A DNA stretch of 64,000 nt from Microcoleus sp. (GTDB taxonomy: Bacteria > Cyanobacteriota > Cyanobacteriia > Cyanobacteriales > Microcoleaceae). Both the position numbers and the translations under genes were made by a program. Position 1 is the stretch's first letter. Every line of letters starts with the position of its first letter. This document shows positions 1,429 through 49,335 of this stretch, one piece after another. The stretch is from NCBI GenBank assembly GCA_042408215.1, contig JAYFMW010000003.1, positions 320,001 to 384,000 of the forward strand, read 5' to 3'. The notes under the pieces are model-generated. The model was not told where the DNA came from, searched no databases, and saw nothing but the letters and a program-made list of their open reading frames with translations.

Positions 1429-2748
1429 ATGGCTGACATTAACCGATTTTACGAAATCCTCGAAATTGAGCCTGGAGCTTCTTTAGCAGAAATTCACCAC
1501 GCTTACAGGGATTTAGCCTTTGTGTGGCATCCCGATCGCTTTGCCCACAATCCTCGTTTGCAACAGAAAGCTCAACAAAGATTAACAGAAATTAATCAAG
1601 CTTACGAGCAGTTGGTGTTTTTTCTGAGTCAGCCTGAATTAAGTTCCATCGAACCCGATTTGCCGCAGCCGTCTCCTGCACCAGTACCTGAAATACTGAA
1701 CAGAAGAGGCTTGAGAAAGCCAGCAAGCAGGGGCGGTAGCAAAAAAAGCAAAATCAGCCCAAACCCTACCTCGAACAGCAAGAAACGATTTTCAACGGTC
1801 AACTCAAAGTCGCGAAACGTTGCCAGCTCCGCGCGACAATCTCAAAACTATCCAAACCCTACATCCCCAAGCCAGCAACGATTTTCAACTCAAAACTCTT
1901 CCAAGCCGATCGCGAAAACTAAGAAACGATTTTCAACTCAACACTCAGGGTACGCACGGGGGTACAGCCCCTACAGCACTCAAAACTATTCAATGTTCCC
2001 GATCGGCCCGCTGGCGATCGCAGTTGGGAGTTACGCTTTGACAGGCTGGATTTTGACGAAATCTGACGCCCCGCTGTGGATGTTGAGTTTAATCTGCGGT
2101 GCTGATTGGCTGTGGGCGGCGATTTTGGTGGCGGAGGGCTCAGCAACATCTGAAGTTTGGCTGGTGGCTTTAGTTTTGGCTGGGGCGGTGGGGGGCGCGA
2201 TCGCGGGAAATCAGGCGGGTGGTATGGTGACAGCGGTGGCTTGGGCGCTGGTAGGGGCTGGCTTGGGGGCGATCGCCAGTTTTGAGGCCGAGTCTAGGGC
2301 TGTGGCGGGAGTGTTGGCGGTGGCGTCGGTGGTGACAGTAGCGGGATTGATGGCGGGCACGGGTTCTCTTAATTGGGTGAGGGCGGTGGTTGAGGCGCTG
2401 TGTTGGGGGATTGCTGGCTTGATCTGTGGGCTAGCGGTGGAAGTAACTGTTAATTCCAGGGGCTCTGCGGGGCTTGGAGGTTTGATCGGGCTGGCGATTG
2501 GTACAACGGTTGGGATTGTTGCTGGGGCGGGTGTGGGTGCGATCGTCCAAGCTTTAGCCATCGCCGGCTCTAAGGGTATTTATGGGGCTTGGGCGGCGAT
2601 CGGAGTTATTGCTGGAGCGATCGCCAGGATGGTGGCTGGGGAAAGGTCGATCGGCTGTAGCAACGGGCTTTACACGTTTATCCTGTTGGTAGCAACTTCC
2701 GGTTTTGGACTGTGGCTGGGAAATTGGTTAGTCGATCGATTTTTTTGA
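1429..2748 (+). CDS. J-domain (DnaJ type III) protein with a Gly/Ala-rich hydrophobic C-terminus
   Basis: FYEILEIEPGAS...AYRDLAFVWHPDRF...EINQAYEQL contains the HPD motif; multiple hydrophobic segments follow. ATG 1429 is preferred over 1252, which overlaps polA. Confidence 0.85.
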   Translation: MADINRFYEILEIEPGASLAEIHHAYRDLAFVWHPDRFAHNPRLQQKAQQRLTEINQAYEQLVFFLSQPELSSIEPDLPQPSPAPVPEILNRRGLRKPASRGGSKKSKISPNPTSNSKKRFSTVNSKSRNVASSARQSQNYPNPTSPSQQRFSTQNSSKPIAKTKKRFSTQHSGYARGYSPYSTQNYSMFPIGPLAIAVGSYALTGWILTKSDAPLWMLSLICGADWLWAAILVAEGSATSEVWLVALVLAGAVGGAIAGNQAGGMVTAVAWALVGAGLGAIASFEAESRAVAGVLAVASVVTVAGLMAGTGSLNWVRAVVEALCWGIAGLICGLAVEVTVNSRGSAGLGGLIGLAIGTTVGIVAGAGVGAIVQALAIAGSKGIYGAWAAIGVIAGAIARMVAGERSIGCSNGLYTFILLVATSGFGLWLGNWLVDRFF

Positions 2749-2878
2749 ACTCTGCCGTGTCCCTGTAGGGACTGTAGGGACACGGCACTGCCGTGTCCCT
2801 ACCGGACATCTGTACTTCACTCAACTGAGAAATGCTATACAAACTATTGATGCTGATGGTGACCGGACTTAATCTTAA

Positions 2879-3616
2879 TTACTGGTTTTGGACATTACCA
2901 GCGTGCAAACCACACTCTTTTAAAGTCGCTTCTTCCCACCACCAACGGCCTTCGCGTTCGTGTTGGTTGGGCAATACTGCTCTGGTGCAGGGTTCGCAAC
3001 CAATGCTGATAAAGCCGCGTTCGTGCAATTTGTTGTAAGGCACTTCTAAAGCTCGAATGTATTCCCAAACCTCGGCGGAAGACCAATTTGCTAAGGGGTT
3101 TAATTTAATTAATTGATGGTCTTCAGTTGAGAAAGCAGTGTCAATTTCAATGACAGGAATATAGTTGCGGGTGCTGGGACTTTGGTCTTTGCGCTGACCG
3201 GTAATCCAAGCATCAAGGGTATTGAGTTTGCGGCGTAGGGGCCTGACTTTTCGGACACCACAACATTCTTTGTGTCCGTCTTGATAGAAACTAAACAATC
3301 CCTTGGCTTCTACGAGGGCTTGTACTTCCGCTGTATCGGGATACATTACTTCTAATTTAATACCGTAATGTTCTCTGACTTGTTCCAAAAACTGATAGGT
3401 TTCTGCGTGCAAACGTCCGGTATCGAGAGTGAAAACTCGGAAATCTTTGGTAATTTTTGAAGCAATATCGATGAGGACAACATCTTCAGCGCCGCTGAAG
3501 GAAATCGAGATATTATCAAAAGTTTCAAGGGCAAATTTGAGAATTTCTCGCGGTGTTGTTTGGCTGTATTTTGCTTCCTGGGCAGCAATATCTAATTTTG
3601 TCTGGGTAGCGACCAT
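2879..3616 (-). CDS. cysH: Adenylylsulfate/phosphoadenylylsulfate reductase
   Basis: SFSGAED, LDTGRLH, ECCGVRKV, WITGQRKDQS, SIGCEPCT, REGRWWWE and C-terminal ECGLH motifs. Confidence 0.95.
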   Translation of the reverse strand: MVATQTKLDIAAQEAKYSQTTPREILKFALETFDNISISFSGAEDVVLIDIASKITKDFRVFTLDTGRLHAETYQFLEQVREHYGIKLEVMYPDTAEVQALVEAKGLFSFYQDGHKECCGVRKVRPLRRKLNTLDAWITGQRKDQSPSTRNYIPVIEIDTAFSTEDHQLIKLNPLANWSSAEVWEYIRALEVPYNKLHERGFISIGCEPCTRAVLPNQHEREGRWWWEEATLKECGLHAGNVQNQ

Positions 3617-45971: not shown

Positions 45972-46340
45972 GTGACAGAGGCTACAAATGTTCTGGGCGG
46001 AAAATTAGAGACTTGCTGCACTTCGCCAATGACGGGCTATTATCGAGACGGCAAATGCAATACAGGTGGCGGTGACTTCGGGGCTCACACCGTTTGTGTT
46101 CAACTGACGGCAGAGTTTTTGCAATTCACCAAAAGGAGGGGAAATGATTTGAGCACTCCTGTTCCCGAATTTCAATTCCCCGGTTTGAAGCCTGGGGGTT
46201 GCTGGTGTTTGTGCGCTTCGAGGTGGAAAGAAGCTATGGATGCGGGAGTTGCGCCGCCTGTGGTTTTGGCCGCGACTCATGTCTTAACTTTGGAATACGT
46301 TTCTTTGGCTGAATTGAAGCAGCACGCTGCTGATTTGTAG
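45972..46340 (+). CDS. DUF2237 family protein
   Basis: NVLGGKLETCC, TGYYRDGKC, GNDLSTP, WCLCASRW. Confidence 0.9.
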   Translation: MTEATNVLGGKLETCCTSPMTGYYRDGKCNTGGGDFGAHTVCVQLTAEFLQFTKRRGNDLSTPVPEFQFPGLKPGGCWCLCASRWKEAMDAGVAPPVVLAATHVLTLEYVSLAELKQHAADL

Positions 46341-46441
46341 GGAGGAATGTGCGATCGCTTTTAGTCAATAAGGGCGATCGGGTTTTAAAGGCGAGCTCGC
46401 GACTGAAATGTTTAAGTGCGATCGGGTGTCATTCTCAAGTT

Positions 46442-47923
46442 TTATGGTTGAGTTGGTGGTTCCCACTTACAGATAGACTTTGGCTGGAGAGGACAAGTTT
46501 TGGGGGCGATCGGATTTCCGCTGAGGCGGAGCTCTGTCAGGTTAGTCAAAGATTGCAAGGGTTTGATATCGCTGATTTGATTTTTTTCGAGCCAGAGCTC
46601 TGTCAGGTTAGTCAAAGATTGCAAGGGTTTGATATCGCTGATTTTATTGTTGCTGAGGCGGAGCTCTGTCAGGTTAGTCAAAGATTGCAAGGGTTTAATG
46701 TCGCTGATTTGATTGTTGTTGAGGTAGAGCTCTGTCAGTTTAGTCAAGGATTGCAAGGGTTTGATATCGCTGATCGGATTTCCGCTGAGGCTGAGCCAAG
46801 TCAGTTTAGTCAAAGATTGCAAGGGTTTGATATCGCTGATTTTATTGTTTCTGAGGCTGAGCCCAGTCAGGTTAGTCAAAGATTGCAAGGGTTTGATATC
46901 GCTGATTTGATTGTTGTCGAGGACGAGCTCTGTCAGGTTAGTCAAAGATTGCAAGGGTTTGATATCGCTGATTTGATTGTTGTCGAGGCGGAGCTCTGTC
47001 AGGTTAGTCAAAGATTGCAAGGGTTTGATGTCGCTGATTTTATTGTCGTGGAGGCTGAGCAAAGTCAGATTAGTCAAAGATTGCAAGGGTTTGATGTCCC
47101 TAATTTGATTGTTGTCGAGGCCGAGCCCAGTCAGTTTAGTCAAGGATTGCAAGGGTTTAATGTCGCTGATTTTATTGTCCCAGAGGAAGAGCACAGTCAG
47201 ATCAGTCAAGGATTGCAAGGGTTTGATGTCGCTGATTTGATTGTTGCTGAGGAAGAGCACAGTCAGATCAGTCAAGGATTGCAAGGGTTTGATATCGCTG
47301 ATTTTATTGTCCCAGAGGTCGATCACAGTCAGGTTGGTCAAAGATTGCAAGGGTTTGATGTCGCTGATGTTATTGTTGCGGAGGTCGAGCTCATACAGGT
47401 TAGTCAAGGATTGCAAGGGTTTGATGTCGCTGATTTTATTGTTGCTGAGGAAGAGCTGAATCAGGTTGGTCAAAGATTGCAAGGGTTTGATGTCGCTGAT
47501 GTTATTGTTGCTGAGGTCGAGCCAAGTCAGTTTAGTCAAAGATTGCAAGGGTTTGATGTCGCTGATTTTATTGTTGCTGAGGCGGAGCTCTGTCAGTTTA
47601 GTCAAGGATTGCAAGGGTTTGATGTCGCTGATTTTATCGTTGTAGAAGTTAAGTTCCCTGAGACTCGAAAGTTTCCGATTGGCTGCATCGCATTCAGTAG
47701 TCTCAGCTTTCTGCAACAGCACCTCAACAGTATGTTTAGCTTCAGGAGTCAAAGAATCCCTCATGCGACACCAATCAGCAAATGTTCGTCCACTGTTTCC
47801 CGATCGCTTCTCTGCGACTAACGGGGAAAATCCATTTCCACATGATGCTAGGACGATCGCACTAAAAGCAACTACTATCAACCTTTGTAAATTTATATGT
47901 TTGTCTGCAACTATAAGTGTCAT
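46442..47923 (-). CDS. Internalin-like LRR lipoprotein with 18 repeats of 22 aa
   Basis: Lipobox LASC; cap FADWC...ECDAA; repeats LTxLxxLxLxxNxISDIKPLQS; C-terminal cap NPIAPKTCP...C. Confidence 0.93.
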   Translation of the reverse strand: MTLIVADKHINLQRLIVVAFSAIVLASCGNGFSPLVAEKRSGNSGRTFADWCRMRDSLTPEAKHTVEVLLQKAETTECDAANRKLSSLRELNFYNDKISDIKPLQSLTKLTELRLSNNKISDIKPLQSLTKLTWLDLSNNNISDIKPLQSLTNLIQLFLSNNKISDIKPLQSLTNLYELDLRNNNISDIKPLQSLTNLTVIDLWDNKISDIKPLQSLTDLTVLFLSNNQISDIKPLQSLTDLTVLFLWDNKISDIKPLQSLTKLTGLGLDNNQIRDIKPLQSLTNLTLLSLHDNKISDIKPLQSLTNLTELRLDNNQISDIKPLQSLTNLTELVLDNNQISDIKPLQSLTNLTGLSLRNNKISDIKPLQSLTKLTWLSLSGNPISDIKPLQSLTKLTELYLNNNQISDIKPLQSLTNLTELRLSNNKISDIKPLQSLTNLTELWLEKNQISDIKPLQSLTNLTELRLSGNPIAPKTCPLQPKSICKWEPPTQP

Positions 47924-48069
47924 AATCCTGTACCTCTAATTTTCTGATACATGAAAAGCGGAAAACTGCCCAACACATTTATATCTGATTATACTAATTC
48001 CTAGAGTGCTTCAGTTTGCGTTATCTGATCTGCGAAGCGAGGATATTTCTACTGACGCACCCTACTCAA

Positions 48070-49089
48070 CTAATTAATATCAACTCCCACCAAATCTGCC
48101 ACAACTTTCTCCAATCCAGCTATCACCTTCGCCGTCCGTTCCCAATCAACCTTATCCGGCGTATCCTCAGAAGTATGATAAAAAGGATAACGATAAGGAG
48201 CCGTATCAGTCACCATCAAACCCGGATAACCATGCTGCCAAAAAGCCCATTGATCTGACCAACCAACACCGGGAATCACACCAGGAATTGCTGCACCTTC
48301 CGAGGGAAATTGAGCATGGCCGCGGAAAGATGCGATCGCATCCCTCACCAGTTTACTTGAGCCAGTATTACCAATAAATCCGATAAAATTCCCAGAAGTA
48401 GGATAAAGTAGACTTAAGGGCGCTGGATATTTCTGACTATCCTTAACATCTGAATAATAACCAATTGTTTCTAAACTCAACATCCCCACAATCTTTTCAT
48501 TACGTTCTCTGCATCTTTTCGCATAAACCAAACTCCCCATATCCGCAGTCCAGAAAAAAGGCGGTTCTTCATTGACAAACTCAACAAAACGCAGTGTCCT
48601 GTTAGGCTTTTTATCCGCAAACATTCTCGCTAAAGCCAACACTCCCACCGCCCCAGTTCCATTATCATTGGCCCCTGGACTACCTACCACCGAGTCATAA
48701 TGTCCGCCAATTACCACAATTTCATCCGCATTTTTACCACCGGGAATTTCCACCTCAATGTTATAATAAAATCTATCATCAACTTTGTATCCTTGTCGTT
48801 CAACTTGATAGCCAGCAGCCTGAAATGAAGTTTCCAAAAAATCAGCAGTTGCGGCAAGTTTCTGATATTGAATAAAATTGCGTTCTCCAATTTCACCAGC
48901 TAACTTTTCCCCATCGCGGCGTAAAGCATCACGCATCACAATTTCCTGTGGCGTTAAAGGAGGAATTGTCCCGCTATAGCTTTTTCCAGGCATTGCAATC
49001 ATAGTCAAATATCCCACACAAAGCAGAATAATTAGGACAATACTCAGGATAGAAAGTCTAATTAATGCAGCGCGATCCCATAATTTCAT
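48070..49089 (-). CDS. M28 family peptidase
   Basis: GGHYDS, PGANDNGTG, NEEPP, SDQW, YHTSEDT. Confidence 0.9.
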   Translation of the reverse strand: MKLWDRAALIRLSILSIVLIILLCVGYLTMIAMPGKSYSGTIPPLTPQEIVMRDALRRDGEKLAGEIGERNFIQYQKLAATADFLETSFQAAGYQVERQGYKVDDRFYYNIEVEIPGGKNADEIVVIGGHYDSVVGSPGANDNGTGAVGVLALARMFADKKPNRTLRFVEFVNEEPPFFWTADMGSLVYAKRCRERNEKIVGMLSLETIGYYSDVKDSQKYPAPLSLLYPTSGNFIGFIGNTGSSKLVRDAIASFRGHAQFPSEGAAIPGVIPGVGWSDQWAFWQHGYPGLMVTDTAPYRYPFYHTSEDTPDKVDWERTAKVIAGLEKVVADLVGVDIN

Positions 49090-49335
49090 TTTTATTTGTC
49101 GCATCAGTTTTCTATTGTGAGTTATGCTTTAATTAGACAAGACTTACACACTCAATGGCCGTGTTGCAAGGGTTTGAGATTATTCGCAACACTTGCGAAT
49201 GACAGAATTACGTTAGCACCCTACATTATACCAAATCCGGCTCTAGACCCCCTGATCTTTCTCCTCTTCTTTGTGTCCTTCGCGTCTTCGCGGTCGATCA
49301 AAAAAAGGGGGTTAGGTCAGCGGATTTGGTATTAC

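Follow-up and report, generated by a model that had tools for sequence, protein, structure and literature searches.

Related repeat systems

Lamprey VLRs are LRR solenoids in which a conserved scaffold with Cys-containing caps carries a variable concave face, and they are assembled somatically from flanking cassettes; in InlA, the ligand is bound by the concave face. The HIC repeats of fungal NLR-like proteins (WD40, ANK, and TPR types, for example those of Podospora HNWD/het-e) are near-identical in DNA, polymorphic in number, and subject to concerted evolution, with positive diversifying selection acting on a few of their positions, which map to the binding surface; the cut-off for internal conservation was 85%, and no LRR was found in fungal NLRs (PMC4986451, for the part of that paper drawn on here). 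Term searches of PMC7159879 and PMC8195603 returned no statement on near-identical hypervariable repeats in bacterial conflict systems, and full-text searches of the literature returned no description of the cyanobacterial LRR family to which the gene discussed below belongs.

This gene encodes a predicted exported LRR protein and lies in a window of 64,000 nucleotides, the whole stretch of Microcoleus sp. DNA analysed here (contig JAYFMW010000003.1, positions 320,001–384,000; all positions below are those of the window). Near-identical repeats with a hypervariable binding face are a known kind of arrangement, as in the fungal NLRs, and the Microcoleus gene is a further member of this kind. 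Like the HIC repeats as that part of PMC4986451 presents them, the array is internally very uniform (86% matches by TRF, against the 85% cut-off) and its framework has changed little (dN 0.007, dS 0.17); its repeat number varies and its evolution is concerted, both of which are seen here between species only, and the concave-side codons 9, 11, and 13 have an omega of ~10.6, a pairwise NG86 estimate. Unlike the NLRs described in the same part of that source, the repeats are of the LRR type and belong to a small, predicted-exported bacterial protein that has no STAND NTPase (NACHT/NB-ARC) or effector domain; the RIP mutagenesis of the fungal system is inapplicable to this gene. The protein resembles the VLRs in being an LRR solenoid with a variable predicted concave face, a conserved scaffold, and Cys-bearing caps, but it differs from them in that the window genome has no cassettes and array pieces from three public runs match the window exactly.

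The LRR protein and its gene

The gene occupies positions 46442..47923 on the minus strand, ends with its stop codon at 46444–46442, and encodes 493 amino acids; it was delineated from the ORF, Pfam matches, and an AlphaFold2 model. The Pfam matches are to LRR families only (LRR_4, E = 7.3e-92 in 10 stretches; LRR_8, E = 2.6e-44), and no Ig-like inter-repeat, GTPase, NACHT/NB-ARC, or effector domain was found in that comparison. Bacterial lipoprotein signal peptides close with a lipobox of the form [LVI][ASTVI][GAS]C. The translation of 47840..47923 (minus strand) has a basic n-region and a hydrophobic h-region followed by L25-A26-S27-C28, so that, by this motif, the product fits the bacterial lipoprotein pattern and is a predicted lipoprotein. 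Residues 29–43 are predicted to form a flexible tether (residues 1–43 have a pLDDT <50 in the AlphaFold2 model).

The N-terminal cap comprises residues 44–103 (47615..47794, minus strand), as defined by alignment columns and by the helices in the model, which cover residues 48–86. It contains the invariant C52 and C78 and a degenerate unit 0 (residues 82–103); the columns F48, W51, C52, and C78 are invariant in the alignment of 20 family members, and the dN/dS of the cap is 0.30–0.69 against seven relatives. Next come seventeen 66-bp (22-aa) LRR units with the consensus LQSLTNLTxLxLxxNxISDIKP (46493..47614, minus strand), delimited by TRF, by the units set in register, and by dN/dS. The C-terminal cap (46445..46519, minus strand), GNPIAPKTCPLQPKSICKWEPPTQP, was defined by the family alignment and has the invariant C477 and C485; its motif is present in nearly all LRR genes of the syntenic loci discussed below. 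The protein ends in ...CKWEPPTQP and has no LPXTG motif. Because it has a signal peptide and because C52, C78, C477, and C485 are invariant in the 20 aligned family members, we infer that the protein would be extracytoplasmic and disulfide-bonded, with the two conserved Cys pairs forming the disulfides.

A scan of positions 46250–48200 gave 0 promoter-like and 0 terminator-like sites, and a defence-system search with PADLOC gave one weak match only (E 0.0018). In public RNA runs, 8–17% of the sampled words were present. Antisense to the gene, a 490-aa open frame (46349–47821, plus strand) extends across the entire repeat array; it seems to be a mirror effect of the repeats, given that the LRR is encoded on the minus strand.

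The repeat array and its variable codons

TRF reports a single array at 46520–47642, with a period of 66, 17.0 copies, 86% matches, and no indels. The units are numbered 1–17 here and correspond to repeats 2–18 of the original prediction, which had described 66-bp repeats that are near-identical even at synonymous sites and vary at x-L-x-L-x. This description is borne out by TRF and by the in-register units, and all of the accompanying codon counts were reproduced. All 17/17 units have NNG at codon 9 (GAG 9, GTG 3, TGG 2, GGG 2, CAG 1, TTG 1). At codon 11, 16/17 have NNC and unit 16 has TGG; at codon 13, 13/17 have NNC and the other four have TGG (two units), AGA, or GAA; the Leu codons that lie between these variable codons are CTC in 33 of 34 cases and ATC in the remaining one. 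Codons 14, 16, 6, and 8, which had not been mentioned before, vary as well, third base included, with 14 and 16 varying less than 9, 11, and 13. The array varies chiefly at the first two bases of codons 9, 11, and 13 (base diversity is 0.40/0.65/0.00 across the three bases of codon 9 and 0.79/0.65/0.12 across those of codon 11). Third-base diversity is zero in 9 of the 15 framework codons, and third-base changes are seen at codon 13 (AGA, GAA, TGG) and at codons 14, 16, and 6.

Some of the units are extremely similar to one another. Units 6 and 7 are 5 nt apart, units 10 and 11 are only 2 nt apart with both differences within codon 11, and the 3′ half of the array has a common silent-site haplotype. 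Such near-identity of neighbours, above all that of units 10 and 11, suggests that units were duplicated recently. Some otherwise identical units are separated by two-base changes in a single codon (units 10/11, CGC/GTC; units 10/15, GAC/AGC), and these are explained less easily by single hits than by short conversion patches.

Predicted structure and class

The AlphaFold2 model, which was built on 20 family members, has a mean pLDDT of 90.3 and a pTM of 0.83. It is a solenoid with one short strand in every unit, at unit positions 9–11 (DSSP), and codons 9, 11, and 13 map to this strand of the concave side. Profile matches and the exact 22-aa spacing over 17 units place the protein in the 22-residue internalin-type LRR class, and the presence of a concave-side β-strand in each unit (model and Foldseek) makes it a curved solenoid. 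The nearest solved folds in Foldseek are the Chlorobium Roco LRR (5il7) and InlA, with a TM of 0.70 and 42–48% identity. With InlA (1o6s/2omv) and the Chlorobium tepidum Roco LRR it shares the 22-residue LRR class and the solenoid fold (Foldseek E 2.4e-38 to 1e-36; phmmer E 6e-91 to 3e-85). It differs, however, from the Listeria class 1 internalins in scoring 400.3 bits against the NCBIfam internalin_A cut-off of 1600, from InlA in having neither an Ig-like inter-repeat domain nor LPXTG, and from Roco in having no GTPase; unlike both, it has Cys-pair N- and C-caps that are specific to the cyanobacterial family, and its repeats are far more uniform in DNA.

Selection on the predicted binding face

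Within the gene, the framework has a dS of 0.169 and a dN of 0.007 (dN/dS 0.04), whereas codons 9, 11, and 13 have a dS of 0.094 and a dN of 0.989, an omega of ~10.6 that becomes 4.7 once codons 14 and 16 are added; these are pairwise NG86 values over related, possibly recombining units treated as independent, and recombination can inflate such estimates. The comparison across the repeats separates ~10.6 at the three variable codons from 0.04 in the framework, in agreement with the diversification that had been proposed from the codon pattern. That proposal coupled diversifying selection with recombination or gene conversion on the binding face, and it is supported by the dN/dS values, by the variation in gene copy and repeat number at the locus, and by units 10 and 11. 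Among 105 arrays of at least 8 units, first- and second-base diversity at codons 9, 11, and 13 has a mean of 0.62 (range 0.38–0.76) and is high even where the framework third-base diversity is 0.02; third-base diversity at the same codons tracks that of the framework (rho 0.72). In 683 units from loci with the family N-cap, the entropy at unit positions 9, 11, and 13 is 3.98, 3.74, and 3.42 bits, respectively, and it is ≤0.8 bits at most framework positions. These three positions are frequently occupied by W, Y, D, N, S, or R, and richness in such residues is typical of binding surfaces.

Could these values arise with no positive selection at all? The surface positions would then be unconstrained and saturated, gene conversion would erase synonymous differences in the framework, and homogenisation would produce the high dN/dS artificially. 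That the array was homogenised or recently expanded is clear from a framework dS of 0.17 within the gene and of 0.47–0.73 between species, and the first- and second-base diversity of the variable codons is alike in young and old arrays (the 0.38–0.76 range and 0.62 mean above), as such an explanation would have it. Conversion tracts, however, would take in the variable codons together with the framework; a dN of ~1 stands beside a dS of 0.09 in the same codons, and therefore either selection against homogenisation or selection for change is needed. Units that are only 2–5 nt apart differ almost solely at the variable codons, and the richness in W, Y, D, N, S, and R at those positions also speaks against unconstrained, saturated positions. 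We regard an explanation that dispenses with positive selection as unlikely.

It is instead likely, in our judgement, that in this gene for a predicted exported and lipid-anchored LRR protein, mutation and positive selection reshape the predicted concave binding face and unit turnover and recombination keep the scaffold uniform. The mutation would be of the ordinary kind and the selection strong, and the turnover would consist of unit duplication and loss that, with recombination, likely keep the scaffold DNA uniform. Given its lipobox and two Cys pairs, the protein should lie outside the cytoplasm and may bind a variable ligand via the concave face; candidate ligands are phage or competitor proteins and surface molecules of neighbouring filaments. 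The gene clearly exemplifies, in a bacterium, the combination of a uniform scaffold and a hypervariable predicted binding face, and its near-consensus LRR scaffold may interest designers of repeat-protein binders.

The fixed third codon base

Codon bias was considered as a cause of the NNG/NNC pattern and is ruled out, since the codons used are a genomic minority: these G- and C-ending codons have shares of 17–46% each in the 1,730 long ORFs of the genome, and the pattern has log10 P values of −8.9 and −8.7 against genome codon usage. Under a null model of stepwise accepted single-base, amino-acid-changing substitutions that start from one ancestral codon, simulation retains the third base as often as is observed (P = 0.18 for codon 9, 0.46 for codon 11, and 0.66 for codon 13). 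Only 24 of the 105 related arrays have a third-base diversity at the variable codons that is within 0.1 of the framework value, and the base that is fixed differs by gene; for example, it is T in 14/14 units at codon 11 in array L016 and T in 14/15 units at codon 13 in array L024. Because the synonymous diversity of the array is near zero, the simulation reproduces the pattern, and the pattern is not family-wide, the fixed third base, which is not unusual under the stepwise null, needs no special mechanism.

The third base of NNG and NNC would simply be inherited from the ancestral codons of an array that is young or homogenised. Third-base changes at the variable codons would mostly be silent, conservative, or stops, and would leave nothing there for selection to fix; those that usefully alter the residue do occur, as at codons 13, 14, 16, and 6. 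The comparison shows that NNG/NNC arises as a side effect of the genetic code in a young repeat array, with no sign of a new mutagenesis system. Internal stops were also examined as a possible sign of hypermutation and rejected as such, as only one of the five flagged loci (L021) has a true in-unit stop and the others are gene boundaries. The L021 array, from a genome of another genus, has 13 uniform units and a framework third-base diversity of 0.14, and one of its units has an in-frame TAG at codon 9 where the sister units have TGG; this marks either a newly formed pseudogene or an error in sequencing.

Templated mutagenesis and cassette exchange

The original prediction had also raised a DGR-like mutagenesis acting in trans, in which an RT copies a template with AAG/AAC codons and writes NNG/NNC into the units. 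The 17/17 NNG and 16/17 NNC codons do resemble the outcome of adenine mutagenesis of AAG and AAC, and DGRs are known in multicellular bacteria including cyanobacteria (PMC10907252, in the part used here). The protein also resembles the DGR targets described in that part of the paper in being a putative binding protein, possibly lipid-anchored, with few variable codons in which the third base is kept. The genome, however, does not bear this mechanism out. When one 66-bp unit was compared by blastn with the 7.36-Mb draft genome (30 contigs, 99.98% complete), all 17 significant matches lay inside the gene, and the best match elsewhere was 37 nt at 78% identity (E 0.08), so the whole-genome search for paralogue cassettes or a template yielded no copy of the unit outside the gene. 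All four RVT_1 matches in the genome are group II intron RTs, which carry an RVT_N domain, a QGGxxSP motif, and/or a maturase-HNH tail, and none is a DGR-clade RT. Of these four RT genes (L001–L004, on contigs C30, C6, and C17), two encode full-length proteins of 571 and 579 aa that end in an HNH tail, and L002 and L004 appear broken, the former by an in-frame TGA and the latter by having its RT and maturase/HNH parts in separate frames.

The pattern of variation is also at odds with a templated process. In each unit 13 A columns and 11 T columns never vary, and adenine-directed mutagenesis on either strand would reach them; these invariant columns are incompatible with it unless all changes of this sort were purged by selection. 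Third-base variation also occurs at codons 13, 14, 16, and 6, and elsewhere in the family the third base is fixed as T or G, or is not fixed. Unlike DGR targets as that part of PMC10907252 describes them, the gene is accompanied by no DGR RT or template repeat and has no adenine specificity, its variable sites are spread across 17 units where a DGR uses one VR, and the fold is an LRR where a C-type lectin fold is usual for the DGR variable repeat. We give this mechanism next to no credence.

Programmed cassette exchange of the VLR or antigenic variation type would need silent donor units elsewhere that are copied into the expressed gene. The combinations of variable codons are in fact reticulate among units (TGG occurs with GAC and with AGC, and AGC occurs with GGG, TGG, and TTG), and relatives hold tandem clusters with up to about 30 family matches per genome, both of which would fit such a system. 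The window genome, however, has no further DNA-level copy of the unit, and its only two paralogues have diverged repeats and 61–62% protein identity. None of ~1,710 foreign units exceeds 92.4% identity with any window unit across 66 nt, and three runs from two studies, which may be the source clone, contain array pieces that match the window exactly. Cassette exchange is accordingly an exceedingly improbable source of the variation.

Assembly, strains, and public runs

The order and number of the units rest on the draft assembly, and public contigs confirm pieces of the array of up to 211 nt, with none spanning it. The comparison with public runs used assembled contigs, which drop rare variants, and gaps of cover in single bins carry no weight in it. 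In three runs from two studies, the array pieces and flanks are identical to the window; these runs may be the source clone and hence give no independent support. If the array were an assembly artefact, several LRR genes would have been collapsed or joined into a chimera by mis-assembly; the genome is indeed a 30-contig draft, and public contigs break within the array. The frame, however, is open over 493 codons with the N- and C-caps intact, the listed pieces from the three runs all have 0 differences (including pieces of 196–211 nt across three units), and the genome has no other gene able to supply these units; an artefact is very improbable.

In the microbial-mat run X4, the flanks differ from the window at 6/455 positions, and the array pieces, 277 nt in total, comprise 195 nt with 1 difference and 82 nt with 0 differences. 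Two other array bins have no cover in X4, and the contig ends continue into different sequence. Taken as a whole, these observations argue weakly against rapid hypermutation and fit unit-level differences between strains. One X4 contig joins ~46380 to 47731, which skips 1350 bases of the LRR gene; its 150 fitting nt include 10 differences, and it may derive from a strain or relative with another form of the gene at this site. A search of metagenome contigs with an exact 31-mer from the N-terminal region gave 3 contigs, all ~77–85% identical and none from a same-species strain, so that these are other species or paralogues.

The locus and the family in Microcoleus

Matches to the flanking genes locate the syntenic site, between frhB(-M28) and DUF2237-GNAT-pfk, in 10 other Microcoleus species. 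The number of LRR genes at the site is 1, 2, 3, 4, 2, 3, 2, 3, 1, and 2 in these species, and each gene has about 4–15 units, compared with 17 in the window gene. The frhB-DUF2237 site is a chromosomal hot spot, a birth-and-death locus for LRR genes. Framework dS is 0.17 within the window gene and 0.47–0.73 against the syntenic-locus units of the 10 other species; because the value within the gene is below those between species, the array is younger than the species splits or has been homogenised since. The flanking genes frhB and DUF2237 have a dS of 0.31–0.40 between species. A special cross-species constraint on the framework was considered and rejected, since its mean dS of 0.47–0.73 is not below that of the flanks. 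The single best foreign unit matches are 96–100% identical over 45 framework nt.

Family matches occur in 24/24 sampled genomes of the genus, with up to 31 per genome, and the window genome has this LRR gene and two diverged paralogues only. The signal peptides alternate among family members between a lipobox and a type-I-like form. The exported LRR family is expanded and quickly turning over across Microcoleus, an ecologically important former of mats and soil crusts, and identification of its ligand could point to phage, neighbour, or kin recognition by filamentous cyanobacteria. It is possible, if on balance doubtful, that Microcoleus maintains, through gene birth and death, a repertoire of exported LRR receptors located at one fixed hot spot and in a genus-wide family, with concave faces that evolve at a dN/dS of ~10. 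These would be a bacterial cell-surface counterpart of the recognition receptors of plants and fungi, with which this bundle-forming, multicellular cyanobacterium would recognise phages, competitors, or kin filaments.

A gene for an M28-type peptidase (48070–49104, minus strand) lies 146 bp upstream of the LRR gene on the same strand. Of the 10 other species, 6 have M28 at the syntenic site, and its pairing with the LRR gene is not fixed. At one syntenic locus (L028 of genome G003, positions 2299–3041), the LRR gene and DUF2237 are separated by two small genes of 111 and 139 aa that the window lacks and whose products may resemble XisI/XisH-type proteins. At another locus (L022, on contig C131 of genome G022), two family genes appear to be fused in one frame, with a second N-cap motif (TFADWC...) after the first array and no intervening stop.
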